Shown here: positions 1,690 to 59,448 of the stretch, in pieces
Position numbering within the stretch: position 1 is the first letter of the stretch
How the letters are laid out: every line of letters begins with the position of its first letter
Assembly (NCBI RefSeq): GCF_004010195.1
Contig: NC_057733.1
Coordinates: 34,494,021 to 34,558,020, forward strand
Reading direction: 5' to 3'
Source: Chiloscyllium plagiosum
Lineage: Eukaryota
Length of the DNA stretch: 64,000 nucleotides
Program-made: the position numbers and the translations under genes
The notes under the pieces: generated by a model
The model's database searches: none
Told to the model about the DNA's origin: nothing
The model's input: only the letters and a program-made list of their open reading frames with translations

Positions 1690-2331
1690 AGAGAGAAAAG
1701 AAAATTAATATTTCTGGTTGATAGCCTTTCATCAGAACATTTCTGATGATTTGAAAAATTAATTTGGTTTCTGTCTCCACGGTTGATGTCAGACCTGTAG
1801 AGTATTTCCAAAATTTTCTGGCTTTATAATATATTTCTAGCATCCACAGTATTTTACTGGTATGCCTTCAAGGAAGTTTGTTTTAGAGGCCAACTAACAA
1901 ACAAGGAGAAAACACCAGAATAAGACTTAAAAATGTGATATTGGCTCCACAAACACAGGAATTATGCTTATTATTAGTTCAGAAGTGAAATGGGTGATAG
2001 ATTTGGAAAACAACTAGCTATAAATTTTAGTTTACAAATGGGTTACAAAATGAGATTAATAGCCAGAATCAATCTGCCTCTAATTTTTAACAACTTTCTT
2101 TTTGATAACTACTGATGACACCACAGAAAAATGTTGCAATTTCTCCATTAAGTCTTGCATTATTGAGCCAAAAATCAGTCACATTCAACATGATACCAGG
2201 GTTTATACCATTGGTTTATCCAGTTTTCACTTTTAGAATTTTTCAGAAATCACTGCAAAGTTAATCTTGCTAAGCTGCAAAATGTAGGTCTAGTCCTGGA
2301 GAGAAATGTTACTGACCACAGTAGTGAAGTA

Positions 2332-2660
2332 CAGGTACACAATCCTTTATCAGAAATTCTGAAATCCGAAAAGCTCCGAAATATGAAACTTTTTCGTGGA
2401 ATGTCACTTTAGTGTACGAACAGGTAACCCAACTCCATACCCACTCGAACTATGTCACTCAGATGTAACAGGGTGGCATGGCCCAGCACTGGTAGGCATC
2501 AATTGTGTCTTAGTGCTCGTAATATTCACATGTGCGTCTGTTGTTAGGTAATTTTTTAAATTTCACTGTGAAAATATCATTTATTCCAAAATCTGAAATA
2601 TGCTGAATTTGAAAAAAAACCAGTGGCCCCAAGGATTTCAGATAAAGGATTGCGTATCCG
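2332..2660. mobile_element. Tc1/mariner-pogo (Tigger-like) MITE
   Basis: TIRs CAGGTACACAATCCTTTATC / GATAAAGGATTGCGTATCCG, flanked by TA (2330-2331, 2661-2662); subterminal CYGAAA repeats; no ORF. Confidence 0.85.
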
Positions 2661-4439
2661 TATTATAGTGAAGACAACCTGGTTAAAATGACATAGTTGC
2701 AATCCATGTGAAATTCTGATTAAATGGATTTTTTTTTTCTGTTTAGTTTTAATGGTACTGATATTCTTACCAGAAAAATCAGATACCTGACTACAACCTG
2801 GTTTGGCAGATGATTATTTTGAACTTTTTTGGTTTTAACCAGGTGATCTCTCACAGAAACAAAATGCAATGATGCATATTTAGTATTAACAATAAAACAG
2901 AAGTTTATTGTGCAGAAGAAATGAAAATAAAATAAGCCAAACTATCTTTTTGTGTATTTTTGATAGTGGACTAAAATAGACAAAGACTTTAAAAGCAAGT
3001 TAGTGGAACGCACTGCAAGTGGTATTTTCCCAGCTGCTTTGTTCAAATAGTGGCGACGGTTGGTTGGCAGATGGACTAGCAACAGGCTGTTAACACAATG
3101 AGAGATTCAGCCAGCAATAAGTAGCTGTTTGATTTGGAGTGGTTAACTCGTTGTTGATGATAAAAAGAAAAATCAGTCTGCCAATAATTATGACTCCAGG
3201 GTAAACAAACAACTTGTGTATGGGAATTACACTGCTAGAAGCCTTTGACTTCCAAAGTAGGAGGCAGTGTCCTTCTCCCTGCAGTCGGGAAATATTAAAG
3301 CCTGAATTCTGGTCTGTATTTTCTAGGTCTACAAAGACTGCTAAAATTGGAGAGTGTGTACGCTTTGACAAATCTCTCACTTTTGAGAGGGTTCTGGGAA
3401 CAGTAGGACTTTACTTCCACCATGTTACACCAGTGAGATGTGACAATTTACAAATAACACAAGTTCAAAGATTTTGAAAGATGTAGTAAACTACAACCCC
3501 AGTAACTCCAAAGGCACGGCTTTACAGGACTCAAATCATCAGAGAATAATCAGCGTGTGACTTAACAGATATTTCAATTCCCAGTCACAAGAATTCGATA
3601 GCCTTTGCCATAAGCCTTTATACAACTGAGCATTCGTATCCTATCCGACCGTGTCTGTCTGTAGTCGTGAGCATAGACTTTGCCAATTTCAAATAACCTC
3701 TTCAGGATTTTAACCAACCCTTGGGACTGTTTTATGCATTCTGCTTCTGCCAAGAAGTCCACAAACCTAACAAAAATCCAAAAGCTTTTTCCAATCTGAG
3801 TTACACTCTCAAGTCAGAAGAAAAAAAAAAGTCTGACCTTCTAAACTGAACTCTTAATGCACAACAGTTTACTTTGTTCCTGGTACAAACTCTCCCAAAG
3901 TAAATAAATTCCCATGAGCATCCAACAACTTTCTTCGATGGCTTTAAAAGAAATCACCATGACTACAGAAATAAATGCAAGTTAACCATGCCCTTCAGAC
4001 ATGGACCAAAATTCACATATCACTAGCTCAAATCATATCATTTTAGTTTGGAAGTTACAGGTAAATCACAAACCTTGTATAATATACAAGGTCTTTTAGT
4101 GCGATCATGAAAAATACATGATCATTAACTGTACTGCATTTTGCTCATCACTATCATTAAGTTAGGTTTTAGTACAGAACATGCACAAAGCAATGAATTT
4201 GTCAAGAGTAGCCATCTATATGAAAATGCTTTCAAATTAATTTTGCCCTCCAGCACATTTCAACCATTGCAAAGTATAAAGAAAATAATTTCTGAAGTAT
4301 AGTCTTATAATTCAAGGTCTGTTAATAAAATCAAGGCCTTTAATCTGAAAGTTTACATTGAGACTCCACAGAATAATCATACAAGACTGCAAGCACTGCA
4401 TTTGCAATCTTATGAAAGTAATGGATTAATAACAGAGAA

Positions 4440-6385: not shown

Positions 6386-7964
6386 CTGAAATCAAAAGGG
6401 AGGAGAAAGTTGGTAAATTGTTCAATATCTTCAATTAAGAAAACATGAAAATCTAGCTAAGTGGGATAAAATGAGAATTCAATTGTGAAATCAAATCTCA
6501 TCACTATTTAGCTTGGCCATAACCTCCATTACTCTAACTAAAATACACTTGATTGGTAAGGACATTATGCTCGATCACAGTTGTGCACCACCTACCAAAC
6601 AAACTATTGACTTTCTCAGGGTCATATATAAGGTTACCATCAAGAGCCATGAATATTCATTCTACTGAGTTGCTTTTACTAAGTAAGCCTGCGGTTGACA
6701 TTAGCTTAACATTGACAAAGGATTTCACTTCTCAAACAAGATTGAGTTTTTCTAAATTTCTCAACTTGCAGATATTTGTAAAGTAGGAAATATTAGTATA
6801 CTTCAGAAGATAGTGGCCCAGAAATACTAATGGCCAGACAGTAATTTCTGCAATGCTCGCTGGAGTTGCACATGAGGGCCATGTGAAAATTCCAACACAG
6901 CTGACTCCAAAAGAAATTGCCCTAGAAATGGCCCTACATCCCAAGCCTTCAAAAAAATCTCCTTAAAGTCAAAATTCAGTAAGTTCCAAATTCAGTTAAG
7001 TTTAATAGTTATCCAGGAAAGATTAGTAGATTAGACAAACAACTGTAATACTGGTTAACTATTAAACTAATCCCCAAATGCAACACTGACCCTTCTACTA
7101 AATTCAACACCCTCCACCACACTGAGAACCCCAATCCAAATCCCTGCTCTGACTTTCTGTACCACTGCCACAACCCCAGTGGAACCCATAGCTCCCTCCC
7201 AACACCAACCCCCGAACAGAAAGTCATTCCCTGGCCCTAACTGAACAGCCACCTGCCAGACCTAATGTCACTTCACCACCTCGATCGAACATTCTCGTTC
7301 TTCCACTCCCACAACCTCTTACCAGCACCTACATTAGGTACTCAAAAGTTCAACTGGCACCCTATGCACCTCAACCATTGAATATTATTCTCTTATCTAT
7401 AAACCCCCTCACTTCCACACTTAAAATGGAATGGGGTCTTTATATAACTTAAGTCCTAAAAGAGCACAGCAAGAGCCATGAATATGGAAAGTATTGCAAA
7501 CAATGCTGTTCCTGCACTGAATGCATTTCTCTCTGATTTTCACCGATGATGCACTTGGATCAGCCAGACTTGGAAATCGGGTCAGAAAAATAGTCAACAA
7601 CCCAATGAGGACGACAGTGACTCGAAGGCAGCCCACTGCCTCCATCTCCAGGTCAATTAGGGATATGCAATAAATGCTATTCTAGCCAGTGATGTCCATA
7701 CCCTATAAACAAATGTAGAAAACCCACTTGCCAGCCACAAATAATTAATCACAGTTGGGGTTCAATTTCTGTATCGAAATTAACCTTAAACGCTGCGGCC
7801 CAAACCACCAATGCTACGGAATGAACATGAGCAGACTGGAATATAGAAGTGAGTTTCAAGCTTAAAATAATTTTAAAAACTACTTACATTTAAAACTTAT
7901 TCTAACCCTCCCACAACCTGTACATTTATTACATACAGATAGCTTTTTTTTTCAATGTACTTAC

Positions 7965-13979: not shown

Positions 13980-15085
13980 GAAAGCAAAATACTTCAGATA
14001 TTTGAAATTGGAGACAAAACCAAACTTCTGGAAACACTCAGCAGGTCCAGCAGCATCTGTGGACAGAAACAGGGTTAACATTTCAGGTCAAAGGCCTTTC
14101 TTCATAATTCAAGATATATGGAAATGTAATAGGCAGAGCAAGTGAAAAGAACAAAAGAAATCTATTGTAGGTCGGTGAGCAGGAGAAATTAAATGGCAAA
14201 AGATTTCACAATGAGCGAAGACAGTGGTAATGGTTATGGCAAAGAAATAAAATATTTGTTCAGGGTGGCATGAATGCCAGAATAACAAAATCATATCTGA
14301 TAGCAGAGGCAAGGTTAGGACTGACATATGCAAATCAAAGTGAAAATACAACAGGAGAGTTTACTGTATGTTGAACACAATGTTGAATCTAAGTGACCAA
14401 ATTGAAAAATGGGACCCTGTTTCACGAGCTTGAATTGAGCTTCACAGAAACTACACAGACAGAAGACAGAGATGTCAGTGTGAGAACAAGAGGGAGAATT
14501 AAAACGGCAAGATACTGGAAACTCAGGACCGTGCTTATGAACTCAGCAGAGATGTTCCATAAAGTGGCCAGGAACCCCCATTTGATTTGAATGTAGAGAC
14601 CATATTACAAACGGTGAACACATTAAGTTAAAAAAAATTAATTTCAAGCATTGGACAGCGAGAAGGTGAAGGTACTGTGGAAAACCTTCTTGGGAGAGTA
14701 ACTGGACCAGAGTTAGAGGAAAAGATCCTTCGGAATGCAAACGGAAAGGCTTAAGGTGTGCTTGATAGTAGCATTATGCTGCAGGTGAAAGAAAAGGCTA
14801 GAGATGAAATTTTGGATGTTGAAGTTAATTGAGGTGAAAGGCAAGGACAAGGGAAACCATATTGCTGTTCTGTAAGGGATGTTGTGTGAGGAGGAGTGAA
14901 GGAACAAGAGTGGATACAGTACAGATTCCTGACAATCATTGCGGGGGAGGGGAAGCCTTCAGGAAAGATCTATAGATGTAAATTCTAAATTGAAACTTTA
15001 TTGCTGGAACAGCACAGCAGGTCAGGCAGCATCCAGGGAACAGGAGATTCGACATTTCGGGCACAGGCCCTTCTTCAGGAATGAG
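13980..15085 (-). mobile_element. Penelope-like element remnants (old fragment plus younger terminal piece 14985-15085)
   Basis: Terminal motif cagcaggtc(a/c)(g/a)gcagcatc shared with many copies; hammerhead core at 15047-15082. Confidence 0.65.
15047..15082 (-). ncRNA. Minimal type I hammerhead ribozyme motif (Penelope pLTR)
   Basis: AUUC-CUGAAGA-A-GGGC(CUGU)GCCC-GAAA-UG-UC-GAAU. Confidence 0.6.
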
Positions 15086-18000
15086 CAGAGAGTCAGAAAC
15101 ACAAGGTAGAACTGATTGAGAGACTGATTGAAGTTGACTCAATCCTACATGGTTTGAAAGCAAAAAAATGTATTAATCAATATGATGTCTCCAAAGTGTA
15201 GGCTTGCAGTACAATTGAGGATCAATTAAGGGAGTTAATGCCTTGTGTGATCAAGAAGGGGAATAACACAATGGACTTTTGTCATGACCTTCTTCACAAT
15301 TACCATACAGATTTAGTGACAGAGCTGAAATAAAGAAAAGCAGCAGAATACAGCTGTTCAACTTAGAACATATCAAGATCAGACTTAGAATCTCAAATGC
15401 TTTTCTCTCAAAGACTTGATTTTCAACAATTCTTGGAATGTTTCTTTTTTTCCTTCGACTGTGAAGATGGATACAGAGTACTTGTTCAAATCTTCTGCTA
15501 TTTCCTCATTTTCCATTATTAATTCTTCAGTCTCGCCCTTTAAGAGTGCTCATTTTCATTTTGCTTACCTTTTTATACTTGTAGAATATTTACTGTCTGT
15601 TTTTACAATTTTGTTAGTTTTCTCTCATACTCCAATTTCCCCACCTTTAATAATACTGAAGAAAGACATATTTTGTACAAACTTTTTGTCATCCACTCAA
15701 GATAATTTGCAAGAAATACTAGTATAAAGAGAAAACAAGATTTTACTGTGTGACAGACATTCTTCTATTCATTTCTCAGGGTAATGCCTTGAATAATCAG
15801 AGTCAACCTGTCTGATCTAAAATTTAAACAAAGCTGGGCAGTTAACTGTAAGTCATCATCTACCTGGTGCATTTTCCATGGCAATGCCTCTACTAATTAG
15901 ACTCCACTTGAAAATTAATTAGCCCTTGCCGCTCACACAGAATATTTTTCCCCTTTAGTGTGGCATTTCTTGTAGATTCTCCTGATGAGTGCAAGGTCTT
16001 TGCCACATGTGTCTTTTTTCCAGCAATAATCAAGTTCTGTCGTACTAAATGGCAGGTTCTCTGTTTTATTACTTTAGGCATCCTTTGCTGATTCTTAAAA
16101 CTGTCTCAGCTTTCTGCCTTATCACTAATCCTGTACACTTACTCTTTCAACTTAATACCACCCTTTAACTTCCTTAAATAATTATGAATAGTATATCTTT
16201 CTGGTAGAATCTTTCTTCCATCAAGGACTAAATATTTTTTGAGAGTAGTATTTCCCTAAAATACCTGCCACTACATCCTCACCATTTCACCATTTAACCT
16301 ATTTCCCCAGTCCAGTTTAGCTAACTCTATCTCCATACCCTTGTCATTGTCTTTGTTTTAAGTTTAAGCCATTAGTTATGGACCCACATTTCTCACTCAA
16401 ATTGAATATGAAACTTTATCATGTTATGAATGCAATTGCTGAGAGGATCCTTTACTATGAGGTCCTTATTATTCCCACCTCATTAATATTCCCAGGGTCC
16501 AAAATAACCTTGTTCCTGGTAGGTTCCAGGAAACTGTCTTAAATACATTGAAGGAACTCACCTTTCAGATAACTGTTGTTGATTTGCTTTGTCCTGTGTG
16601 CGGGGTTGTGGGACTATGAGGTTGGAGACGGTGGATGGGAGGTCCCCTGAGGTGATGAGGTTATGGATGGTCTGGGAGATGATGGTTTGGTAAATTCTAA
16701 AACAAAGCAGCTTGAAATATAAATATTCATAGTCAACTTTTTTTCATCATTTCAAATTTATAGAAATACAAACAAATATTTTTGATCAAAAGTAGGCAAA
16801 GTGTAAAAGGCAGACATTTGAAATCTTAATTTGCAGATAGATGCCCTTGTGTTATCAAGCACACAAATCCTTGCAAGTTTCCCTTGCAACAGAAATTCCT
16901 CAACTTGGACGAATTTTGAGGAGGACCACAACCAGGGGAAAATAAGCCTGAAGAGATCTTTAATCCAGGGTATATGGGGCCATGAAGTGAAATTTTAGGG
17001 TCCAAGAGCACATTATACCAGCTGTGCTCCCACTCCTGCTCGGCCTCTGTACTCTATTCCCTCTGTTCTCACTGAGGAATTGAGACAATTTAAAAGCCTG
17101 AACACTGGGTCAAAATGGGAAAACAATCTGGAAAGCACTGCCCTTGCCTCTCCACATGGCAGTTATGGGAAGATTCACCAAACAGCAACTTTCATCCAAT
17201 GAATGGATTACCATGATCATACTGAGTGGCAGAGTGGACTTGCAGGGCTGAATGAATGGCCTGTTTCTGGGACTACTTGCTGTACCTGGAGTTGTCAAGA
17301 CTCAACAGTCCCACTCTCAACTGAAGACAACACTATAAATTTATGGAACTAATTTGTGGAAACTCAGAAGAGATTTTTAAAAAATAATAGTACATATTGT
17401 TCTTACCCTCAAGGAATTCTAAGAAAAATATAGCATTTTTGGTATTTCACCAAATTTCAAGTCATTTGGTCAAAGCAAATAGGTTTTATATAAAATTGTG
17501 TTACATTCATTTGTGCCACAATGCCAGGGGAGCACTGACTGTTGATGCAGTGTTGGTCTCACTGTCACTGTCTGAGTTAGTTGCTGCATTAAAACAAACC
17601 TGTTGGCTTGTCACAAACTAATGTTACATTTGCAGTCCTTAACTACTTGCAACTTCTTGTATTCATTTTATCTAACATGTACAACTGCTCCCCTATAAAA
17701 TACACTTTTGATGCTTCAACAAGTACAGAATATAATCAAGATATATTATTTCAGCAATCAAACTTCTCAACTTCCAATAAGCTCAGCTTGTAATATTGTT
17801 TGGTAAAACTCAAATGAAATTGAATAAAGTACGTTACAAATGTATTCTGTTGTTGGATTCGAAATAATGCCTCTGGGTTTAAACATCCCAACTAAGTTCC
17901 AACTCAGCTATTAGACAGGACTGAAGGGGTTTCCTGCACAGTCTTTTTTTGTGGGTGGTTGGGGGGGTACAGGCTGTAGGGTGAGGGAAGTATGGCATTT

Positions 18001-22813: not shown

Positions 22814-23141
22814 CTAGAAAGTAAACAGAAGCCCATAATTAATAGCCTGAAATAAAATTTAACCCTCACCATTTACCCTAAGCCATAGCAAGCTTAGAGG
22901 TAGCTGCACCACATCATGATATAAACTCACAGAGACCAGCGCATATCTTGAGTTTTATATTCCATCTGCAGGGTTTTATAGATTATTTCAGCTGGAATGA
23001 TTGCAGAAACCTTCAACAGACCTCAATAAAATGAGCTAAATGGAAAAATACAAACAAAAATATATAATGTCTCTTAGCTCATACATTTGATCACTATCTA
23101 GGAACCTTTGGAGGAAATTTGAGGGTGGTGGAGGAGGGCTG

Positions 23142-23364
23142 TTTTTCAGACTGGAGGCCTGTGACCAGTGGAGTGCCACAATGATCGGTGCTGGGTCTGC
23201 TACTTTTTGTCATTTACATAAATGATTTGGATGCGAGCATGAGAGGTACAGTTAGTAAGTTTGCAGACGACACCAAAATTGGAGGGGTAGTGGACAGTGA
23301 AGAGGGTTACCTCCGATTACAACAGGATCTGGACCAGATGGGCCAATGGGCTGAGGAGTGGTAG
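23142..23364 (+). mobile_element. CR1 RT internal fragment
   Basis: Near-identical to 51190-51420 (VTSGVPQ.SVL..., SKFADDTKIGG). Confidence 0.9.
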
Positions 23365-24220
23365 AAATCACAAATGTGGAAGCTGCTACTGAAGAAAACT
23401 TTGTTACGTTGCTGTAGTGCATGTACTGCATGATAGACACTGCTAGCACTACATGGTGGTGATGGAGAGGAAATGAATCTTGAAGGTGGTGGATGGGGGC
23501 TACCAATGCAAGCAGGATGCTTTGTCCTGGATTGTTTGCGCTTCAATATATTCTTGGACCTTCATCCATCTAGGCAAGTGGAGAATAGTGCATTAACTCC
23601 TGCCTTGTTTCATCGACGGTGGGCAGGCATCAGAGAGGTAAGTGCTTACCAAAGAAATTTCTAGCATCTGACATGTGCATATGTGTGCGCACGCATCAGT
23701 GTGTGACTACTGCAACTCCAATTTTCTGCTCAATAATAACCCAAGGGCTGCTGATAGTGGTCAGTAATATTCATGCTACTGAATTTCGAGGTGGTTAATC
23801 AGATTTATTCTTTTTGGAAATGGTCAGTGACTGCAACTTGTGTCCCAAAAATGTTAGCAGCCCAAATCTGATTATTGTCCAGGTCTTGTCATTTGAACAG
23901 ACAGCCTTCATATTGGGAAAAAAACTCCAAATGGTGCTGGACATCATGCAATCATCAGTGAATGATCTTGTGGAGAAAGAAAAAGGTCATTGATGAAACA
24001 GCTGAAGATGGTTGGGCATAGAAACTCCTGGAGTGACAGGTCACATATATACAGAATAAACACTGATGTGGTTGTTATTAGGCTAGTTTATAATTTCAGA
24101 TTGTATTGAATTCAAACTTCACCATCTGCCATGAAAAGATTTGAATCCATGCCGCCAGAACCTTTGCCTGGGATTCCAGATTACTCATCCAGTTACAATA
24201 CCGCTTCTCCACCACCTCTC
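23365..24220 (-). mobile_element. Internally deleted copy of the tRNA-headed LINE (SINE head plus 3' half of RT)
   Basis: Reverse complement resembles 27500-28150; head resembling 28720-28820 at 24100-24220. Confidence 0.55.
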
Positions 24221-24913
24221 AAAAACTATTTAAAAGAAAATCTCCCTCTGAGGACACAGGCTAGAGTAGTCACTTACTTCGGCAATGAAAAAGTCACTGC
24301 TTCACAAAATCTCAAATTCTTAGGCCTTTCCAGAAGTAGATTCATATCAATTATAATGTACAACTTCAAAACTATAGGGTGAAGGTAAAGTCATCCAGTG
24401 GAGACAATTTCAAAATTAGGACAAAATACTTAGAAAAGTCAAATCACCAACCTAGCATTCAAGTTCGATTTACTGCAATACATTTATGTGGCAATGTAAA
24501 AGCAGCCCAGTACACAGTTACAAAGCAATTTGAAACACGTCTTTTCAGGAAGCATTTCACAATGCTGCATTTTAACCAAAGATGCAAAAAAGATGCCAAG
24601 CAGTAGAGGCCTGTCCTTTCAGTCCAAGTCAATTACACTCTAATTACTGAAGAAAGGAAGTCTATAATTAGTGAAGAACATTGCTCTACAATTATTTGGC
24701 TGCATGGATTAGTTGTCAAGACTGAAATATTACAGTTTAAATTGTAAACGACCTCTAGAGTAATGTGATAGCGTTCTAATAAGATACAAGTGTTAACTCT
24801 TAACAGTCTAAGATGAAAGTTATTTTGCTTTTATGTGCCTTAACATCCTACACTTATTTCACTTACTTATTTTGTCTTTTCTTATCTGTGGAGCACTCAA
24901 GGAATTATTTTTA

Positions 24914-27900
24914 GGGGAGGAGCTGGCCTTGTGCTATTATCCCTAAGCTTCTAATTCAGAAATTCAGATAACATTCTGGGGACTCAGGGTCAAATCCCAC
25001 CATGAGAGATAGTGGAATTTTAATTTAATAAAAAACATGGAATTAAGAATCTACTGATGATCACAGAACCACTGTCGATTGTTAGAAACACACATTTGGT
25101 TCATGAATGCCCTTCAGGAAAGGAAATCTGCCACACTCACCTGGTCTGGCCTACATGTGACTTCAGACCCATAGAAATATGGTGGAGTTGTATCAATTGT
25201 TACGAAGTCCCAATAAAGAAATGACGCTGGACAAACCACCTAGTGTTGCCCTAGGCACCAAAAAGACAGCAACAGAGGCAGCTCTGTCAACCCTTCAAAA
25301 TCCTCATCTTCTGAGGGCTAGTGGTGAAATTGGGAGCACTGTCTAGCAGACTTGTTAAGCAACAGCCTGACAGTTACACTCTCAGAATCATATCTTACAG
25401 AAAATGTCCCAGACATCATCCCTGGATATGTCCTATCCCATCAGCAGGATAGGTGGCAGAACAGTGGTACACAGCTGGGATGGAGCTGCACTGGGAGTCC
25501 TCGACATTGACTCCAGACAGCATTAAGTTTCATGGCTTCAGGTTAACGGAGAAAGGAACCTTTTGCTGGTTACCATAAACAGTCCTCCCTCGGCTGATGA
25601 ATCTGTACTCCTTAATATTGAACAACATTTGGTGGAGGCATCGAGGATGGCAAAGGCAAAGTGCAAAAGCACTGCTAATCATGCTGGTGAGGTCCTAAAG
25701 GGCATAGCAACTGGACTGCATCTGGTGAGGAAACCACCAACAGGGAAAAACATACTTGACCTCATCCTTACCAATCTGCTGGCTGCACATGCATCTGTCC
25801 ATGACAGTATCAGCAAGAGTGACCACTGAACCATCCTGATAGAGATGAAGTCTTGCCTTCACGTTGTTTGGCACTGCCACAAGGGTAAATGGCACAGACT
25901 TGAAACAGATCTAGCAACACAATGCTGGACATCCATGAAGTACTGTGGGCCATCAACCTCATGCCTAGCATATCCCCCACTCGACTACTAGCATCAAGCT
26001 AGGCAATCAACCCAAGACAGTACAAGACAGCATGCCAGGAACAGCACTAGGTAAATCTTAACATGAGGTTTAAACCTGGTCAAGCTACCAAACAGGACTA
26101 TTTACATACTAATCAGCACAAGCAGCAAGCGATAGACTCGGCTAAGCGATCCCACAGCCAACGGATCAGATCTAAGCTTTGCAGTCCTACCACATCAGTC
26201 ACGAATGGTGGCAGACATTTAACAACTCACTTGAAGGGACGGTTCCACAAATATTCTCAATGATGAAACAGCCCAAAATATCAATGCATCAGCCCAAAAC
26301 ATACGAGGTTGACGCATTCACACCAATTTTCAGTCAGAAGTGCCCAGCAGCTTCCTCTAGTGGTCCCCAGCATCACCGATACCAGGCTTCAGCCAATGGA
26401 GGCACTGGATACTGCAAAAGCTACAGGTCCAGAAATCATTCCAGCAATAACACGAAGACTTGTGCTCCAGAACTAGCCACTCCCCTAACTAATCTCTTCC
26501 AGTACAGCGACAACACTGGAATCTACCCAACAAGTGGATATTTGCCTAGGTATATCCTGTATACAAAAAGTAGGTGTGGTGTAAAATTATGTCCCAATAC
26601 ATGTGTGAATCATAATGTAACACATGTATTGGGCCAAGCAGTGGAATGTGGTGAAACGGTTAAAAAATTATGTCCCAATACATGTGTGAATCTAACCGGA
26701 ATGGAGGTGTTGCTTAGTCCCGTGTGAATCTTATTACACACCTCCCCGTGTGAATCTTCTTATCTGTATGTAACCAGAATGGAATGTGTTTTTTAGCCTT
26801 GCTCTGCTGTTCACATGAATGTTTATATCTGGAAAAGAGTATATCAGCTGGAAAAGTCTCCAGTTCGGGGAGTCTGCTCCGGGGTTACGTTTAACCGCCG
26901 AGCGTGGGTTGTTGGCAACCGCTCTACGAGAACTGACGGCTCCCAGTTCCGGTAACATGTAGAGTGAGTATAAGCCAGACCCGTTGGTTGTGGCGACGCT
27001 GCGGGGAATAAAATGCTCATATTCTAGCAGACTCGCCTCTTGGTCGTTTGTTCTGTGTCAGACTACTCTCCTACGAACCTGACCTTGAGAATTTTTTAAA
27101 ACAGTAGGACAATCCAGCCCAGCCAATTACCACTCCACCAGTCGACTCTTAATCCTCAGTAAAGTGATGGAATGTGTCACGAACAGTGCTACGAAGCTGC
27201 AACTGCTCAGCAATAACCTGCTCAATGATGCCCAGTTGGGTTCAGTCAGGTCCATTCAGCTCCTGATGTCATTACAGCCTTGGCTCAAATTCAGACAAAA
27301 AGAACTAAATTCCAGAGGTGAGAATGGCGGCCCTTGACATCAAGGCTGCAGTAATCCAAGCATGACATCAGGAAAGCATAGCAAAACTGGACAATGAGGC
27401 AAACTTTCCACTGGTTGGAGTCATGCTTGGCATAAAGAAACATAGTTGTAGTTGTTGAAGGTTAGTCACCTCAGCTCAGGACATGGCTGCTGAAATTCCT
27501 CTGGCCCAATGGTTTTCAGCTGTTCCATTAATGACCTTCCCTCAATCATAAGATCAGAATTGGGAAAGTTTGCCTCGGATTGTGCAATGTTCAGCAGTAT
27601 TCAAGACTCTTCAGATACCGAAGCAGTCCATGTTCAAATGCAGCAAGATCTGAACAATATCTATGCTGGAGTTCACAACTTGCAAGTAATATACGCACCA
27701 AAAAATGCTAGGCAATGACCATTACCACTAAGATACAATCTAACCACTCTGCCTGGACATTCAACAGTGTTGCCATCACTGAATCCCTCACTATCAACAT
27801 CCTGCACTTAGCAATGACCAGAAACTCAAGTGGGCTTGCCACATAAACACAGTGGCTACAAGAGCAAGTCAGAGGCTAGGAATACTGCGGCAAGAAATTC

Positions 27901-28430
27901 ACCTCCTGACTCTCCAAAGCCTGCCCAATTATAATTCACAAGTCAGGAGTATGATGGAATAATCCCTACTTTTCTAGCTGGATATAGTTCCAACAATACT
28001 CAAGAAGTTTGACACCATCCAGGACAAAGCAATTCGCTGGACAGGTACCACAAATGGCCACTTCCTCCACCACCTTCATTCAATAGAACGAGACGCACTA
28101 CAGAAATTCACCAAAGATTCTTAGCCAGCACCTTCTAAACCCAAAACCACTTCTATCAAGAAGGACAATGGATGCAGATACATGGGGATATTACCATCTG
28201 TAAGTTTCTTTTGAAGCCATTCGCCATCCTGATTTAGAAACAGATTATCATTCCTTCACGGTCACTGTCAAAACCTGGTATCTCCTCCCTAAGGAAATTG
28301 TGGGTCAACCTACAGCATGTGAAATACAACCATTCAAAAAAACCAGCTTCCCACCACCTTCTGAATGGCAATTAGGGGCCGACAATAAATGCTGACCAGT
28401 GACATCCATATCCCACAAATGAATAAAAAA
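24914..28430 (+). mobile_element. Near full-length decayed APE-RT LINE (CR1/L2 group) with tRNA-like 5' head; interrupted by a solo LTR
   Basis: APE motifs (QQPD..LSESYL, LDLILTN, SDH); RT motifs (ALDIKAA, FSCSINDLPS, KFASDC); 3' tail caataaatgctg...atcccacaaatgaataaaaaa; many stops and frameshifts. Confidence 0.8.
26575..27103 (+). mobile_element. Solo LTR, 529 bp
   Basis: TGT...ACA termini; perfect 5-bp TSD GTAGG (26570-74, 27104-08); TATAA 26969; AATAAA 27007; 29-bp direct repeats; host LINE sequence resumes across it. Confidence 0.9.
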
Positions 28431-28701
28431 CATCTTGCATAAGAGACAAGCTACTAGCTTTAATACAAAGCTATTAATGTTTCCTCCAGATTTTAGCACA
28501 TTGTTTGTAGTTCCTCCTGTAAGGAAATTTGTCATGGTATGTCATGCTGATCTATAACCCCCACACTATTTTGCATTCCACTACAATTAGGCCAAATTCC
28601 CTTTCTACTGCCCTTCTCCTTCCCTCCACAAGAGATTTCAGTAACTTTTCAGCTCGGGTCAAGTAGCTGAAGCAATAATACATCTTTCTGAAAGCCAATT
28701 C

Positions 28702-29037
28702 AGAGAAAGTGATGACCTTGTGGTATTATCACTGAACTGTTAATCCAGAGACCCAGGTAATGTTCTTAGGACCTGGGTCCAAATCCCACCACGGCAGATG
28801 GCAGAATTTGAATTCAATTTTAAAAAAGTCTAAACTAAGGTCTGAAGATGGTTCAAATTGTCAATAGTTGGAAAAACCCATCTGGTTCACTCATGTCTTT
28901 TAAGGGAAACTGCCATTATTCCCCAGTTTGGCTTACATGTGACTCCAGACCTGTAGCAATGTGGTTGACTGCCCTATGGACAATAAATGCTGGCCTCACC
29001 AGCAATGCCCTCATCCCATGAATGAATAAAAAAAAAA
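28702..29037 (+). mobile_element. LF-SINE-like tRNA-derived SINE
   Basis: A box 28713-23, B box 28775-87; tail caataaatgctggcctcaccagcaatgccctcatcccatgaatgaata(A)n; family name from recall. Confidence 0.75.
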
Positions 29038-30049
29038 TTCTTAAACACAGACAACCAAAGTAGTATCCCTAAAAAGCATGCTGTACCACCTACACAATAC
29101 ATCCCCAAAAAGGTTAAAACAGAGGAAAAGCAACTTGGATCAACACAGGAAACATATTTGTGGTAATTCCCCTCCAGCCTCTGAAGGCAATTAAAGGCAT
29201 TCCAGGAGACCACAATGACACAGTAGCACATCCCACAACAATCAGCTTATCTTCCACCTGCAATTATGTTGGCCACTCTAGAACTATTTCCAGACTCTCT
29301 TGGCCTTTCTTGCATTCTCCATCATCCTTAATAAAACTTCATCAAAAAATGCTACAGCCTGCATTATGATCTTCAAGAAATCCCTCTAACTCATCACTCC
29401 TGCTTTGCAACCTATACCGACTGCTGGTCCACAAAGCTTCCAATTTAACACCCTACATAGGCTAGCCTATCTCTAGCTCTAACATCTAAACTTGGAACAC
29501 TTCCAAGAAATCTGCAGCCTTCTAACTCTGGGATTGAGATTCCTCTACTGTCCTCATCACAATACATGCCTACAGTTAATGAAGCATTAAGCTACAGAAT
29601 TCCACCCTAAATGCCCTATATTTAGTTCCTTTCTCAAGGCTCTTTCTGATACTGATCAAACTTTTAAATAATACTAACTTCAGTTCATTTTTGTCTGAGC
29701 TTTTATGAAAAGTCTTGAAACATTTCTCTACGTTATAGGCTCTGTTTGCACAAACTTTTGTTTTTGAATTCATCCAGTACGGATTTGAATCACTGCAATT
29801 CTAAGAATGGTCACTCACTGTACACAAAGTACTTCCAATATATAACCCAAATCTATCTTGAGTGAATTTTAATTTCATATCCTCCCTAAACTATATCGCT
29901 CAGTAGACTATCCACTTTTCTGAAGCAAAGCCTATCATTAAATATTTTGAGAGTCTCCTCAAAGTTCTATGTTTTCAAAGTTTGTGCGAAGATTTGTAGC
30001 TCGGGTGCTCGTTGTTGTGGTTCTGTTCGCCGAGCTGGAAGTTTTTGTT

Positions 30050-30089
30050 GCAAACGTTTCGTCCCCTGGCTAGGCGACATCATCAGTGC
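30050..30089 (-). ncRNA. Minimal type I hammerhead ribozyme motif (identical inverted copy)
   Basis: Exact reverse complement of 30369-30408. Confidence 0.75.
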
Positions 30090-30368
30090 TTGGGAGCCTC
30101 ATGCGAAGCGCTTCCACACGCAGACAACAGCAACATGAATTCGACTGGGACAACACTACTATCGTAGGGCAAGCCAGACAGAGAACAGCCAGGGAATTCC
30201 TAGAGGCATGGCATTCATCCACAAACTTCATCAACAAACACATCAACCTGGACCCAATATACCAACCACTACAGCGGACAGCTGAAACTGACAACCGGAA
30301 GCGGCAGGGACAGACCACTATAAACACCAGAGGAAACATCAAAGAAGCGCTTCGCACAAGGCTCCCAA

Positions 30369-30408
30369 GCACTGATGATGTCGCCTAGCCAGGGGACGAA
30401 ACGTTTGC
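30369..30408 (+). ncRNA. Minimal type I hammerhead ribozyme motif
   Basis: GCA-CUGAUGA-U-GUC(GCCUAGCCAGGG)GAC-GAAA-CG-UU-UGC: intact core, stem I GCA/UGC, palindromic ACGU stem III. Confidence 0.75.
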
Positions 30409-32487
30409 AACAAAAACTTCCAGCTCGGCAAACAGAACCACAACAACGTTCTATGTTTTTCTAGGGATAAAAAGCGCCAATCCCTCACTCTATTGTAGTA
30501 ACTGAGGAATCTTAAAATAATTGTTCTACCAAAACCTTTTCCAAAGTCTATATTTCGACTTGATAAAGGAAACAAACCATATACAGCATTCTAGATTTAG
30601 CCAGATAAATAATATTTATTGTTTTATATTCATTAACTTGGCAGTAGACCCTAATACTCTATTCACTCTCACAACAGTCTTGCTACATTGTTCATGGGGC
30701 TTCCACAACTAGTGCATTAAAATGTCCAGGTCCACTTCCCACTCAGCAGCCTCAAGCAGGATACCAGCAGAGTTCATGTGCTTGACATCGCCCCTATCCA
30801 AGTGTATTATTTTGCTTTTATTCATCTCACAGTAAAAGACAAATGGCAAAACACAAGCCAATTGCTCCACAACCAATCCAAGATCTAAATACTAATCCAA
30901 TAACACTCAGCCTTGCTTACTTACAATTTGAGAATCTCTCTTTCCCATCAAACATCAGTTCAAGTCTAGAGCACTATGGGTAACATCCTGCAGAAAAAGC
31001 TTAAAACTGTCTTTAAAACTAAGGATTAAAACCTCAGATTGGCTAACAAACTAATCTTTTGCTAAGCAACTTACAAATAGCAAATTAGCATGATTTACAG
31101 TCCTGACTTTAATTTGAAATAAATATTTTTATTAGGCATTCAAGAAGGAATTGCATGATTAGTTGCTTAAAAATTGCATGCAAGGTATGGCAGAAAAGCA
31201 GGCAACTGGCACTAGATAATGATGCATATTTAATGACCAGGTCCAGACATGATGGGCCAAATGGCCTCCACCTGCACCAAAACAATTCAGCGATTCTGTA
31301 GAAAGTTGACCAGAAAATAGCAGTCCAACATCTTTATTAAGTTTCAAGTACTTCTGTTTTCAAAATTAGCACACAGAACATAGGTAGTTAAGACAACAAG
31401 TTTGATGAAAATCTAAACAAAGTTACAAAGAATACCTTTTTCACAGACATCCATGATCCCAAAAAGATATGCTCACTTAGAGAAGAGAACCAAAGTGCGT
31501 TTAAGACTGCCAAGAAATGATTTTAAGGCAATCAACAAACAATTTTGTACAATACTGAATGCCAGAGTGAATGCAGCTAATGTTTGAAAAAAGATTGACA
31601 GGTCTGACTAAATGAGAGAAAAGTATTCACTAAATATGTTTTAGATTCTGATGAAAACAGATTTAAGTTTTTGTAAATCGTGATTTTTAAAATCATGTTA
31701 GCTAAGGGAAATTTAAATTTTCCACTTTGGATATGTGTTAATAGCAAGCTCTCTTATGGGAGTCACAACAGTTAAATGTAGAGCGCGTCTAGCAGTCTTC
31801 TCCAATGCTTTGTTGTAGTTTCCCCAATATCAAAATCCCACCAAGTCAGCATGACATTTTTCATAACAACAACCGATTAAATCTGAATGCGTGCACTAAC
31901 TGACAGACTGAGTTCCAAGCTTGTGGTACTTTGAGCTTGAGGCCTTTACTCTAAAACGACAAAGGTGCACCTGCCTTCACTACTCATTGTTGTTAAAACT
32001 GAAAGCTACTCATCCTTTCAACTAGATTTGATCTTAACCCAAGTCAGTGTTAAGGCCAGCAAGCTACTCAACGGAATTAAATCACCCAGGTGACAGCTTC
32101 ACAAGAAAAACTGAATATTTCGATACAAATGGGTGGTGCCTTGGTAAACATCTGTAACCTCTTGATCTTTTTCTCTATTATGAACTGCATAATCCAGATA
32201 CTTCAGAATTACATGATTCTCAGTAATCATAGGTTGAACCTCATAAAAGACAGATTTTCCCAGTTGACCTCGTAACAGGTCTTCTTCAAAGAGACAATTA
32301 GCACAAGGTAAGGATTGGTGTGACAACCATTTCTTTGGTTCAATGTTAAGCGCAACGCTTGCTGTGGAATCATAGCTTGACAAGTTATCTAGGTTTTATG
32401 ATAGCTTTAAAGTGTAGTGCAAGTGTGCTTAATGAAAGAATATTATTGTTTAAAAAAACTACCTTGAATTGTGGAAGTCAAGCTTAC

Positions 32488-34375: not shown

Positions 34376-35002
34376 GAGTCATAGAGTCAGAGATAGACAG
34401 CATGGAAACAGACCCTTCGGTCCAACCAGTCCATGTCAACCAGACATCCCAACCCAATCTAGTCACACCTGCCAGCACCTGGCCCATATCCCTCCAAACC
34501 CTTCCTATTCATATACCCATCCAAATGCCTTTTAAATGTTGCAATTGTATCAGCCTCCACCACTTTCTCTGGCAGCTCATTCCATACATATACCACCCTA
34601 TGAAAACGTTGCCCCTTAGGTCTCTTTTACATCTTTCCCCTCTCACCCTAAACCTATGCACTCTAGCTCTGGACTCTCCCACCCCAGGGAAAAGACTTTG
34701 TCTATTTATCCTATCCATGCCCCTCAGGATTTTGTAAACCTCTATAAGGTCACCCCTCAACCTCTGACACTCCAAGGAAAACAGCCCAAGCCTCTCCCTA
34801 TAGCTCAAATCCTTCAACCTTGGCAACATCCTTGTAAATGTTTTCTGAACCCTTTCAAGTTTCACAACATCTTTCTGATAGGAAGGAGACCAGAATTGCA
34901 TGCAATATTCCAACAGTGGCCAATGTCCTGTACAGCTGCAACATGACCTCCCAACTCCTGTAATCAATACTCTGACCAACAAAAGAAAGCATATCAAACG
35001 CC
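34376..35002 (-). mobile_element. CR1 (HER1-like) LINE 3' fragment, young
   Basis: LEYCMQFWSP...LERVQKTFTRML...RGDLIEVYKI; ctctatgact tail. Confidence 0.92.
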
Positions 35003-35556
35003 TAAAGCAGGAAACATTAAAGAGGGTGCAATGGATTACATATAGTGAAACAGTTTCAATCATACGCAAACAAATACCCAATCAGAACAAATATATCTTC
35101 CAGCTACTGAAATCAAGTGAAAGGCAATTCAATACTTCCACTGAATTAACAAGTTACTAAAAAATTAGAATACAGCCTAAATTGTTAGATTACCCAAGTT
35201 CTTAATGTTCTATAAGTCAACATTAGAACAGAATTGTAAAATGGAAATCAACTGCAACATCCCACCGCCTGGACAGTTAGTAACTTGGAACGAGTTGATT
35301 TCTGTGTGATTCAGCATCAGTGATACTGGAGGTTCATGTGAATGGGCAACAGTTCAAGACAGAACTGGGCTCAGTTATAATATTTCTCAACTGTAAGATA
35401 GACAGTTGACAGCACATTGGTAATAAACAGGAACTTGTCAACATATAACAGAGGAGGCAGTATTTGAAATTGCTGCATTTTAGTCTAATGGTGCAGAGGA
35501 TAATTTCAACATTTAGAAACACGTCTCTATTATTGCAGTCCCACAAAATATCTTAC

Positions 35557-35674: not shown

Positions 35675-37479
35675 CTGCAAGGTAAAAGAAAAATCAGGAG
35701 ATAAGATATCCATGATAATTTGAAAGCAGCAACAAGAGTATGGACCAAGTAAGAACTGATCCCAAAGGTTGTACATTAGCAGTTTTAAAAGTACCTATCA
35801 ATAATTCAGTCCGGTGAAATTACCTGTGGTGTAGACTGGATTCAGAAATCTGAACCAGACAAAAAATTGCCTGCAAACAGTATTTGATAGGAATGTTAGA
35901 CTGTTAACTAAAACGAGAATTGAAAATGACTTTCAATTCAGTTTATCAAAACCTAAAAAAAAATTCTAATATAATTCTAGAACAGTTGTGTAATTCCCTA
36001 TTTACCAAAAATAACAGACCTCAAAGGGCAGTTATCCCATTTGCAATCTGCCCAGGTCCAGCTAAGAGTTCCATACTCAGGATTACAAACAAACTTTCAG
36101 TCAAAATGGTAGAGTAACTTAACCTTTGCAGAACAGCGATCCTTCAGTAAAAGCAGTTTAAGCATACAAGGAAACAACAAAAAACTAGAGACATTTTGGA
36201 TTGGATAGGTTGAAGAAACTAAATGACCTACCCTTGAGCTGATCATTACTACAATCTTACTTACCAAAATACAAAAGAATAAATAAGGCAAAGCCAACTT
36301 TGGCCAAAGCTCCACCACCTTATGGTAAGGATGTGTTTTTAGAGATTCAAGGTAGGATGGAACAAATTTTAAAGTGAAAGGAGGGGTCATTCATGATCTT
36401 TGTTGTTCTTCCCTGGACTAGCATTCATGGGATGCACCAATACAAAGGACTCCAATGTGCGAGGTTGTGCATCCTCAAGGAGTTGTTATAGTCCTTCCAG
36501 TCTGAGTAAACCTATTAATAAACCAAAGTGGAAGCAATATTTTAATTTGCTTGTTTTTGAACCTTGCACCATCCAATCTTTTTGGCTCTGGAATAATAAA
36601 GACAATTTGCTCAGGTGAGAATCAAGGCAAGCAATTTTAGGACTTCTCGACATGCTCCTGCACTCCTCCATTTCATACCCGAACAATATATTATGAGGAA
36701 CAGCCAATTTGCAGGTTTATGCTGGGACCATTAGTCCATCAAGAATGCACTTCACTTCTGGGCCTGGGTTGATGAGAAAGTAGCATGCACAGAGAAAGAA
36801 TTTTTTTTTTTTTTTTAAAACTCTTGCTTTTGTAAATTATGTAATTCTTCTATGGAATGCACCATCATCCCCATCATTTCACCTGAGTCTGCACAAATCT
36901 GACAGTCAGACAGTCAGGATGATCTTTGGGTTTTTTGGGTGGAGTTTGGTGACAATTGTTCAAAACTATAATTGAATCAACCATGTAAATCCTTGCAGGT
37001 ATAAGAGCAAATCAGAGGTTAGGAATTCTCTAATAAGTAACTCTCCAGCTGATTCCCTAAATGCTGTGCATTATCTATCCAGATAATACCAAGAATCATT
37101 CTGACTTTCAGGTCTGTGTAAATTCAGGGAAAAAAGTAAAAGTCCAAGAATGAGGTTCAAGGAGGCTGATGTTCAGATTTAAATCAACTTGGCATAGAAC
37201 AGCCACGGTGACATCTTCCAATGTGACGTTTGGAAATATAAACTCAATGCAAATAATGTGCAGTTGTCACTGAGTCTTGACAAAACATTGGCTGAATAAA
37301 AAGTAATTGAGGAATGACCATGACCCAAACCTCCCTCCGTCCCTCTACTGCTGGGATTGTAAAAACATGAAAATCACGATGATGCTTCAAGCTATTACTG
37401 AATGTAACTTTACCTAGCTAAATACAACAAGACCGCCTGTGTATACTAATAACTTTCCTAATTATCCACAATTATAATC

Positions 37480-41647: not shown

Positions 41648-42042
41648 TCCTGAAGAAGGGCCTGTGCCCGAAACGTCGAATCTCCTGTTCCCTGGATGCT
41701 GCCTGACCTGCTGTGCTGTTCCAGCAATAAAGTTTCAACTTTGATCTCCAGCATCTGCAGACCTCACTTTCTCCTGCAATAGTCTTAGAATCAAGTCCAG
41801 ATCAGCACTGTCCTCATGACCTATCCTACCTGCCAATATCCCTTCCCACCTATCCGATCCACCCTCCCGTCTGACCTATCACCTCCATCCCCACCCCATT
41901 CACCTATTGTACTCTTTGCTACCTTCCCCCATCCTCCTCTCTGACCTGTTCCTCCTCCTTGGATGCTGCCTGACCTGCTGTGCCTTTCCAGAACCACTCT
42001 GATCTAAACTCTGGTTTCCAGCATCTGCAGTCCTCACTTTTG
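41648..42042 (+). mobile_element. Two tandem Penelope-terminus fragments; the first carries an intact hammerhead core (41650-41677)
   Basis: CTGAAGA-A-GGGC(CTGT)GCCC-GAAACGTC; second fragment has 15-bp TSD cttagaatcaagtcc (41784-98, 42043-57). Confidence 0.8.
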
Positions 42043-42536
42043 CTTAGAATCAAGTCCCACTTGCTCCTAGATATGTGTCTGTGCAGGATAATTGACAATA
42101 TTTGATTTATTATTGTCACATGTGCCTAAATACAGTGAAAACTTCAGTTTTGTGAGCAGTACAGGCAGATCATAATGTACAAGGACATATAGTTCATAGG
42201 GTGTTTAGACAGATTGAGGCAGACAAGGTTACAGCTGCACAGGTAGTGCACAAAAGCAAGATCAACATTAGACATCAAGGAAATACTGAAGAAGGGTGAT
42301 AACACACTCAAGACTGTTTCTGACTCCACAGATGCAGGCAGTGCATTATGACAATAGGAGCAGTTGGAACTGTCTATCGGAGAAAATAAATCGAAGAGGA
42401 GATTTGTGAGCAGGCTGGACTGAATAAATAGGGAGATATTTCCCCTCATAAACGAAACAAGAACAAGAAGGCTTAGATTTAAATTGACATGTAAAAGAAA
42501 CAAGGGTGATATGAGAGAAACCTGCTTATACAACAA

Positions 42537-43910
42537 TCTGTGGGAAGCTAGGGAAGTGATTGCTGGGCCCCTTGCTGAGATATTTGTATCATCGATAGTC
42601 ACAGGTGAGGTGCCGGAAGACTGGAGGTTGGCTAACGTGGTGCCACTATTTAAGAAGGGTGGTAAGGACAAGCCATGGAACTATAGACCAGTCAGCCTGA
42701 CGTCAGTGGTGGGCAAGTTGTTGGAGGGAATCTTGAGGGATGGGATGAACGTGTATTAGAAAAGGGAAGGACTGATTAGGGATAGTCAACATGGCTTTGT
42801 ATGTGGAAAATCATGTCTCATGAACTTGGTTGAATTTTTTTGAAGAAGTAACAAAGAGGATTGATGAGGGCATGGCAGTAGATGTGATTTTTATGGACTT
42901 CAGTAAGACGTTTGACAAGGTTCCGCATGGGAGACTGGTTAACAAGGTTAAATCTCATGGAATACAGGCATAACTAGCTATTTGGATACAGACTGGCTCG
43001 AAGGTAGAAGACAGAAGGTAGAAGACATTTGTTTTCAGACTGGAGGCCTGTGACCAGTGGAATGCCACAAGGATCAGTGCTGAGTCCACTACTTTTGGTC
43101 ATTTATATAATTGATTTGGATGTGAGCATAAGTGGTATAGTTAGTAAGTTTGCAGATGACACCAAAATTGGAGGTGTAGTGGACAGCAAAGAAAGTTACC
43201 TTAGATTACAATGGGATCTTGATCAGATGGGCCAATGGGCTAAGAAGTGGCAGATGGAGTTTAATTTAGATAATTGCAAGGTGCTGCATTTTGCGCAAGC
43301 AAATCTTAGCAGGACATATGCACTTAATGGTAAGGTCCTGGTGAGTGTTGCTGAAGAAAGAGACTTTTGGAATATTGCGTGCAATTCGGGTCTCCTTCCT
43401 ATTGGAATGATGTTGCGAAACATGAAAGGGTTCAGAAAAGATTTACAAGGATGTTGCCAGGGTTGGAGCATTTGAGCTATAGGGAGAGGTTGAATAAACT
43501 GGGGCTGTTTCTCCTGGAGCGTCGGAGGTTGAGGGATGACTTTATAGAATTTTATAAAATCATGAGGGGCATGGATAAGATAAATAGACAAAGTCTTTTC
43601 CCTGGAGCAGGGAAGTCCAGAACTAGATGGCATAGATTTAGGATGAGAGGGGAAAGATATAAAAGAGGCCTACGGGGCAACTTTTTCACACAGAGGGTGG
43701 TACATGTGTGGAATGCGCTGCCAGAGGAAGTAGTGGAGGCTGGAACAATTGCAACATTTAAAAGGCATTCGGATAGGTATATGAATAGGAAGGGTTTGGA
43801 GGGATATGGGCCGGGTGCTGGGAAGTGGGACTGGATTAGGTTGGGATATCGGGTTGGCATGAACGAGTTGGACCAAAGGGTCTGTTTCCATGCTGTACAT
43901 CTCTATGACT
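42537..43910 (+). mobile_element. CR1 (HER1-like) LINE, 5'-truncated, nested in an older CR1 tail (42370-42536 / 43911-44105)
   Basis: VPEDWRLANVVPLFKKG, NYRPVSLTS, SKFADDTK, NFFTQRVVHVWNALP; ctctatgact tail. Confidence 0.93.
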
Positions 43911-49193: not shown

Positions 49194-49380
49194 TGTGTCA
49201 AGAGTGTGGTGCTGGAAAAGCACAGCAGGTCAGGCAGCATCCGAGGAGCAGGAAAATCAACCTTTCGGGAATAAATCCACAAGCCTCATTCCTGAAACGT
49301 TGATTCTCCTGACCTGCTGTGCTTTTCTAGCACCACACTCTCGACTCTGATCTCCAGCATCTGCAGTCCTCACTTTCTCC
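49194..49380. mobile_element. Penelope-terminus fold-back element
   Basis: Inverted arms gagtgtggtgctggaaaagcacagcaggtcagg / cctgacctgctgtgcttttctagcaccacactc; TSD tgtttatt(t/a)aata (49181-93, 49381-93). Confidence 0.8.
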
Positions 49381-50184
49381 TGTTTATTAAATAAGCCACA
49401 ATTCAGCAGAATTACATTCTCCATTTACAGGGCATTAAAATAAAGGCAGATTAGTAATATAGTATCTTTAATCCTTACATCTATCAAAAAAGATTGTTAT
49501 TCCAAGTCTTTAATTCAGGTCTATACACTGTCCTTTGTTACGTGGAACAAATATATTATTCTGACCACACCTTCTTACACAGTCATGGCCCCCTTTACTC
49601 ATTCAAGAGCAAAGTATCATAACTCAATATCAGCAGTGGCAAATTGCAATTGCACATCACCTTTAGAATAATAAAATATCCCAAGGTACTTCACAGGAGC
49701 ATTATGAAACCACACAAGGAAATATTTGTGTAGATAGCTAGCTGCTTGGTCAGAGAGGTAGGGTTTAAAGGGTAAGTGAAAGGACAAGACAGAAGGTAGA
49801 GAGGCAGAAAGGTTCAGAGAGTGAATTTCAAGAGTTTAGTGCCAAGGAAGCTGAAAACATGGTCGTCTGAACTAAAATAGGGGAAGTGCACAAGGCCAGA
49901 ATTATTGGACCACAGAAAACTTGTGGTATTGGGCTGGAGGAGATAGAGAGGAGCAAGGCCATGGTAAGATTTGAAAACAAGGATGATAGTTTTTAACAGA
50001 AGATATTGTTAGATCAGGAGCCAATGCAGATCAATGAGCACAGGGGTGATGTGCAAAATGGACTTGGTGTGGATTATCTGACTGGATAGGCAAATATAAA
50101 ATCAGGCAAGGGCAGTTCTAACTTCTGTACAATGGGAGAGAGGTGTTGGGAAAAGAAGGGAATTCAACCATATCAATGATTACA

Positions 50185-59399: not shown

Positions 59400-59448
<49 letters not shown>

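Follow-up and report, generated by a model that had tools for sequence, protein, structure and literature searches.

How can a long interspersed element (LINE) and the short interspersed element (SINE) beside it be alike at both of their ends? This question is raised by a stretch of 64,000 nucleotides (nt) of Chiloscyllium plagiosum DNA (GCF_004010195.1, NC_057733.1, 34,494,021–34,558,020, forward strand), hereafter called the window, whose numbering is used for all positions. The region under study, 24914–29037, contains a LINE that begins with a tRNA-like head and lacks the first open reading frame (ORF1), followed by a SINE on the same strand. Judged by its sequence, the LINE is an elasmobranch Zenon element of the CR1 group, and its head is almost certainly a trait of that family rather than a product of chance juxtaposition. 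By alignment, the SINE is made of the two ends of the LINE. In the overall reading proposed here, to which we give a probability of roughly 65%, a headed Zenon LINE would have produced the SINE by deletion of its coding middle, and the head would be a predicted RNA polymerase III (Pol III) promoter for both elements. The two elements are divided as follows.

24914–25005, + strand: tRNA-like head of the LINE, with an A-box-like motif at 24924–24934 and a B-box-like motif at 24987–24997; the same head opens seven of seven elasmobranch Zenon consensuses.
25006–25185, + strand: body shared with the SINE, the rest of the 5′ untranslated region (UTR), which stops at 25183–25186, where a copy-specific loss has removed about 40 nt.
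25186–25300, + strand: LINE-only leader between the SINE-shared part and the APE region, coding a basic, Arg/Lys/Gln-rich N-terminal stretch.
25300–25870, + strand: degenerate APE endonuclease region with stops, frameshifts and deletions, matched by tblastn to shark relatives.
25871–28353, + strand: degenerate remainder of the single ORF, comprising linker, reverse transcriptase (RT) and C-terminal part, split by a long terminal repeat (LTR) and recognised by motifs in translation and by tblastn.
28354–28430, + strand: LINE 3′ tail with a short poly(A), common to the SINE (blastn, local alignment).
28699–29038, + strand: SINE of about 340 nt, in which LINE head and body (28699–28975) are joined directly to the LINE tail (28976–29038).

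The sharing of both ends, which had been claimed in the first-pass annotation of the window, is borne out by alignment. The start of the LINE aligns with the SINE over about 275 nt at 72%. With blastn, 24924–25186 matches 28713–28968 (68.9% over 267 columns, E = 2e-19); a longer alignment of 24910–25186 with 28699–28968 has 191 identities and 75 mismatches (72% of aligned positions), and nhmmer gives the likeness of the two heads an E value of 3e-29. The LINE tail at 28381–28430 matches the SINE tail at 28979–29033 (blastn, 74.5%, E = 1e-4), and the local score of 56 lies above those of all 500 shuffles (mean 18, maximum 31). Only three places among 2130 tiles of the window score above 31, namely the SINE, the tail of the LINE and, near 7620, a third copy of the tail. 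The poly(A) of the LINE is a short A run at 28425–28430, with its SINE counterpart at 29028–29038. No sequence private to the SINE lies between its shared 5′ part and its tail.

Zenon LINEs are recorded in five elasmobranchs, the coelacanth and hagfish in a 2026 survey of the CR1 group (Stuart et al., PMC13343379), where all are ORF1-less and poly(A)-tailed. Because all surveyed Zenons lack ORF1, its absence from the window LINE is ordinary; the absence itself stands as first annotated, but not as a novelty, and the element has a single APE-RT ORF. Table S2 of the survey gives ten Zenon consensuses, made by automatic extension and then inspection, and the first 400 nt of each were compared by eye, with no percent identity computed. 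The head opens all seven elasmobranch consensuses (CarCar_Zenon-1, RhiTyp_Zenon-1, ScyCan_Zenon-1, HypSab_Zenon-1 and SquAca_Zenon-1/2/3), which come from five species including a ray, and in each it runs into the same body and leader. The window copy is collinear with them over these 400 nt, so that the junction between head and LINE is not unique to this locus. The head is found in none of the first 400 nt of the other three consensuses, two from hagfish and one from the coelacanth, the last with a poorly supported 5′ end printed in lower case. In the searchable supplement text, four words taken from the window match elasmobranch Zenon rows and no others (7, 6, 2 and 2 matches); the word at 25143 matches only the seven elasmobranch rows, and that at 25250 matches CarCar and RhiTyp Zenon.

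The named protein relatives of the window LINE are whale-shark and horn-shark gene models. In the whale-shark gene model P0025, a peptide of the SINE body (25107–25145, score 55 against 30 for the next match in six frames) is joined to the start of APE, a join that could be a predicted splice or intron. In the first search for long protein relatives, none of 912 candidates qualified. A profile search gave only distant CR1-group proteins (25–34% identity where given), no close full-length relative was retrieved, and collections of metagenome, viral and prokaryote sequences, scanned as protein and as DNA, gave no match. With its collinear 5′ 400 nt, lack of ORF1, one APE-RT ORF, poly(A) and length of 2.9–3.3 kb, the elasmobranch Zenon of the survey is the same element (PMC13343379). 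In contrast to the element as published there, the window copy carries an LTR, and the survey makes no remark on a tRNA-like head, a promoter or a partner SINE: the terms tRNA, promoter, polymerase, pol III and head have 0 mentions, and the preprint text likewise lacks tRNA, promoter and polymerase. Literature titles and abstracts include none on a tRNA-headed Zenon or its SINE, with Repbase Reports, Dfam and most subscription journals outside this coverage; the absence of a tRNA-headed CR1-group LINE and its two-end SINE from print is thus not established.

The coding region of the window copy can be followed through its shark relatives. These proteins match the APE region by tblastn with E values down to 8e-30, and their matches begin at 25318–25330, which places the start of APE about 390–410 nt from the LINE 5′ end, as close to it as first annotated. 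Residues 38–75 of the relative P0024 match the leader and APE start at 25261–25368 (score 80 against 45 for the next), the RT protein P0021 matches 27503–27902 (tblastn, E = 6e-9), and the relative P0005 has the LINE endonuclease domain PF14529 (E = 3e-8, above the Pfam cut-off). Because of its many stops and frameshifts, the LINE itself gives no direct Pfam match on nine raw frames. Without the LTR the LINE measures 2985 nt, in agreement with an earlier estimate of about 3 kb; it is about 300 nt shorter than the published elasmobranch Zenon, and some 40 nt relative to the consensuses have been lost at 25183–25186. The window LINE is a dead copy with a broken coding region. The earlier view of the element as autonomous is not borne out for the present day, since this copy is dead and Table S3 of PMC13343379, in which one cell is garbled, lists 0–3 intact ORF2s per hundreds to thousands of copies (0/2313, 1/1419, 3/612, 0/59, 1/294 and 0/396), and the elasmobranch Zenon family appears largely dead.

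The head of the LINE carries the A and B boxes that had been marked in it, with two mismatches in the A-box-like motif (24924–24934) and one in the B-box-like motif (24987–24997). The SINE has an A box at 28713 and a B box at 28776 with the same numbers of mismatches. Because A-box matches with two mismatches arise by chance in the same stretch, the A box call depends on its position and on the published consensuses. By eye, the CarCar, RhiTyp and ScyCan consensuses have A and B boxes that are close to perfect, and none of the seven elasmobranch 400-nt heads shows four Ts in succession (T4). Anticodon-like, long variable and T stem-loops are visible in the consensus heads, and the stem-loops around the boxes look kept despite letter changes among the consensuses. 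The heads may resemble a class II (Leu-type) tRNA. With a 5′ end about 10 nt before the conserved A box, near-perfect B boxes and no T4 in seven heads, transcription of the full LINE by Pol III is slightly favoured.

The reading frame bears on how such a transcript would be translated. No AUG is seen in the open frame leading into APE in the six consensuses whose frame can be followed. Six of the seven consensuses have a conserved AUG, with UAG two codons on, just beyond the point where SINE and LINE part; three species carry it in the frame of the APE leader and two in another frame, and its site falls in the stretch lost from the window copy (25183–25300 compared). Because no AUG opens the frame into APE, non-canonical initiation, which would suit an uncapped RNA, is put forward as speculation. 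In the window copy the codons of the SINE body stand in one frame with the start of APE; a link between the two was rejected as an indel accident, the frame relation varying among the consensuses.

Contigs aligned onto the window at 80% likeness (runs X1, X12 and X9; organisms A and B) show that the Zenon family is abundant in both organisms. Summed contig depth, which is not a copy number, is 15 in the flank, 135,000–161,000 in the bin of the SINE body and 2,000–3,400 over APE, and it reaches 204,000 close to the 3′ end. At 25183, 547 contigs of X1, 422 of X12 and 85 of X9 depart from the window copy. The consensus of these loose ends (agreement 0.6) starts as the Zenon consensuses continue and ends in the tail word of 28370, in keeping with a mixed population in which some forms read through and others are joined head to tail. 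An organism-B contig spans 25145–25452 with 6 differences and represents the orthologous insertion; it shows only that the insertion is older than the split of organisms A and B.

These elements may be placed in the following history. By comparison, the family layout is a head, a 180-nt body, a leader of about 150 nt, one APE-RT ORF, a short tail and poly(A), with a total length of about 3.3 kb. The head is present in shark and ray Zenons but not in those of hagfish and coelacanth, so it would have been gained in an elasmobranch ancestor, probably through an RT template switch onto a tRNA or the RNA of a tRNA-derived SINE. Pol III starting about 10 nt upstream of the A box would produce a full-length, uncapped RNA in need of non-canonical initiation. 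Deletion of everything between about nt 290 and the last ~65 nt would then leave a short element that keeps the promoter and the RT-recognition tail and would outnumber the full-length 5′ end. Internal deletion of the LINE is the likely origin of the SINE; this direction is favoured because the shared blocks enclose no SINE-private sequence and because Zenon is known for two-ended derivatives (Persaeus). The window copy, which is older than the A/B split, has acquired many small deletions and a later LTR found only in organism A. In its fullest form the proposal is tentative: an autonomous elasmobranch Zenon would have exchanged its own 5′ UTR for a Pol III promoter derived from a tRNA and retained this promoter in sharks and rays. 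Its RT would have been made from an uncapped Pol III transcript of 3.3 kb that has no in-frame AUG, and one internal deletion would have given rise to a highly abundant SINE, the head having joined the LINE first.

A number of results weigh against this reading, and some of them count for an alternative. ARAGORN finds no tRNA anywhere in the window, Rfam recognises none in the decayed heads, and these heads do not fold as cloverleaves; the folding z values of five head and tail pieces range from -1.8 to +1.5. T4 runs are not depleted in the window copy (6 observed against 5.5 ± 1.9 in 300 shuffles), and the RNA data, one poly(A) single-cell run, have a depth of 0–3 over most of APE with head reads in both directions, giving no support for Pol III. 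The lack of T4 depletion would suit a head that is a relic or passenger, captured once, with the LINE transcribed by Pol II from a promoter in the body or by read-through and the boxes serving the SINE only. A protein-coding Pol III transcript of 3.3 kb would also be unusual. Furthermore, the snRNA-headed Tx1 LINEs, as described in PMC4494074, have heads without a recognised internal promoter. Such a passenger head is nevertheless unlikely, because in sharks and a ray a conserved A box follows at about 10 nt from the 5′ end, the stem-loops around the boxes seem to be kept, by eye, despite letter changes among the consensuses of Table S2, and the four T4 runs compared (25018, 25561, 27970 and 27513), out of six, are private to the window copy and absent from other copies or consensuses. 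The remaining adverse results concern the joining of the parts. No convincing target-site duplication (TSD) was found in the window sequence for the LINE, the SINE or the minus-strand copy at 23366–24222. That copy keeps only about 120–140 nt of head (24213–24085), followed by RT-region sequence at 24033–23376 that matches 27487–28133; the link of head to RT drawn in the first-pass annotation is confirmed, but the junction is unlike that of head to APE in the LINE and does not repeat it. The leader bin (25216–25344) has a summed contig depth of only 346, possibly all from the APE edge, and among the listed 15 of 2136 joints and 24 of about 109,200 pieces there is no independent contig over the head-to-APE junction or over a head-to-tail joint. 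With a SINE this abundant, a shallow leader bin, no independent spanning contig among the pieces listed and a differing junction in the minus-strand copy, the SINE could lie beside a 5′-truncated LINE by chance, or consensus building could have run into it. This explanation is largely refuted by the finding of the same junction in seven separately built consensuses from five species, collinear with the window copy over the 400 nt compared; P0025 joins the same parts, with its possible predicted splice.

The order of events may also be reversed, with a tRNA-headed, Zenon-tailed SINE as the donor of head and body to a 5′-truncated Zenon ORF. Bivalve tRNA-headed SINEs with Zenon tails are known (PMC11481361), module exchange among SINEs and LINEs is common (PMC5499810), the 180-nt body could be SINE-born, and contig depth in the head bin far exceeds that over leader and APE. 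However, the shared 5′ region stops exactly where the SINE tail starts, which a random switch point would not give, and Zenon is known to yield two-ended deletion derivatives (Persaeus, PMC6740152), so that a donor SINE is improbable. The SINE had further been labelled LF-SINE-like and the LINE regarded as a possible LF-SINE parent. LF-SINE has a tRNA-like head, a CR1-group tail and a length of about 480 nt. The likeness in head and tail is generic, and the window SINE has about 340 nt. The element uc_338, which represents the LF-SINE 3′ region, gave no match at E values up to 5, the presence of uc_338 in Rfam 15 not having been checked. LF-SINE is described in PMC2315648 as specific to lobe-finned fishes, whereas the named relatives found here are whale-shark and horn-shark proteins and elasmobranch consensuses, and the coelacanth Zenon consensus, with its poorly supported 5′ end, has no head. 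A link to LF-SINE is thus highly improbable, and as the connection with an exapted SINE falls away, much of the wider interest first attached to this locus is gone. The names NSRE1/NSRE2 (PMC1513397), SacSINE1/CmiSINE and HE1 were also considered for the SINE; compared by description only, none fits.

The overall reading of a headed LINE that yields a SINE from its two ends has partial counterparts elsewhere. In Lepidoptera, the Zenon/Persaeus pair of a LINE and a short internally deleted element (SIDE) likewise consists of a single-ORF Zenon of about 3.3 kb and a 260–390-nt derivative of its two ends (PMC6740152). In contrast to the shark derivative, which has A and B boxes and no middle, Persaeus has a variable middle and neither tRNA homology nor a Pol III promoter (PMC6740152). 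The U1/U2-headed Tx1-Mar LINEs of crocodilians (Tx1-2_Crp, Tx1-4_AMi and Tx1-11_Crp) also have a small-RNA head in common with a SINE, SINEU (PMC4494074). They differ in belonging to the Tx1 clade and in having small nuclear RNA (snRNA) heads without an internal promoter, and PMC4494074 reports that no LINE with the SINEU-1 3′ end was found. In Bov-tA, AfroSINE and SINE2-1_ACar, the tRNA head was added after deletion and is absent from the LINE (Kojima 2018, PMC5786205), whereas here the head is in the LINE itself. RTE-1_DAn is cited as a precedent (PMC5786205) alongside the snRNA-headed Tx1 LINEs and Zenon/Persaeus. In that survey only RTE and Vingi contribute 5′ parts to bipartite SINEs (PMC5786205); the shark case belongs to the CR1 group. 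As described in PMC3747384, PMC5499810 and PMC2746220, the shark SINEs HE1/HER1 (V-SINE) and SacSINE1 (Deu, 463 nt, L2 tail) similarly combine a tRNA head with a tail shared with a LINE; in these descriptions only the tail is common to the LINE, and partner and length differ. ORF1-less Zenons, small-RNA-headed LINEs and two-ended derivatives are therefore all known already, and the variant here is a tRNA-headed CR1-group LINE whose SINE is its two ends.

Three other features bear directly on the Zenon elements.

26575–27103, + strand: solo LTR, a later insertion and not part of the LINE, bounded by TG and CA, with a 5-bp TSD at 26570–26574 and 27104–27108 and zero depth in the organism-B run.
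23366–24222, - strand: second, more diverged Zenon copy with a large internal deletion, its head (24222 to about 24084) joined to RT-region sequence at 24033–23376 and its 3′ end missing.
7639–7731, + strand: third copy, a 5′-truncated tail fragment of the Zenon family, recognised by sequence match.

Summed contig depth over the solo LTR is about 183,000–205,000 in the run of organism A and 0 in that of organism B. Poly(A) RNA reads lie on the LTR to a depth of up to 305 and end in poly(A) at 27024–27029, just past an AATAAA at about 27007. It holds a 29-nt direct repeat and a 47-nt palindrome and represents a high-copy, recently expanded and transcribed family. A further Zenon fragment, from the C-terminal coding part, lies at 36994–37074. 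Younger, canonical LINE fragments of CR1 type, 85–91% alike, are found at 23121–23365, 34379–35003, 42537–43910 and 50137–52228, the first of which lies directly against the minus-strand Zenon copy where its 3′ end is truncated. Another short repeat family, likewise abundant, has many copies on both strands (14984–15104, 41648–42057, 49197–49407, 59060–59636 and 62529–62866) and is not related to the Zenon SINE; as a guess, it is possibly the shark V-SINE HE1. An inverted repeat like that of a miniature inverted-repeat transposable element (MITE) lies at 30010–30114 and 30344–30448 (105 nt, 97% identity, 229-nt spacer).

In the usual description of SINE birth, a small-RNA head is joined either to the tail of a LINE or to a LINE that has already undergone deletion (PMC5786205). 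With the head on a full-length LINE across sharks and a ray, one deletion makes a complete SINE, in which promoter and tail are matched from the start. In shark repeat libraries, such a SINE and 5′ fragments of its LINE will be mistaken for one another. Should the LINE be driven by its head, elasmobranch Zenon would represent a natural protein-coding Pol III transcript, and the transcription and translation of an ORF1-less, single-ORF LINE would become testable with a 400-nt fragment.

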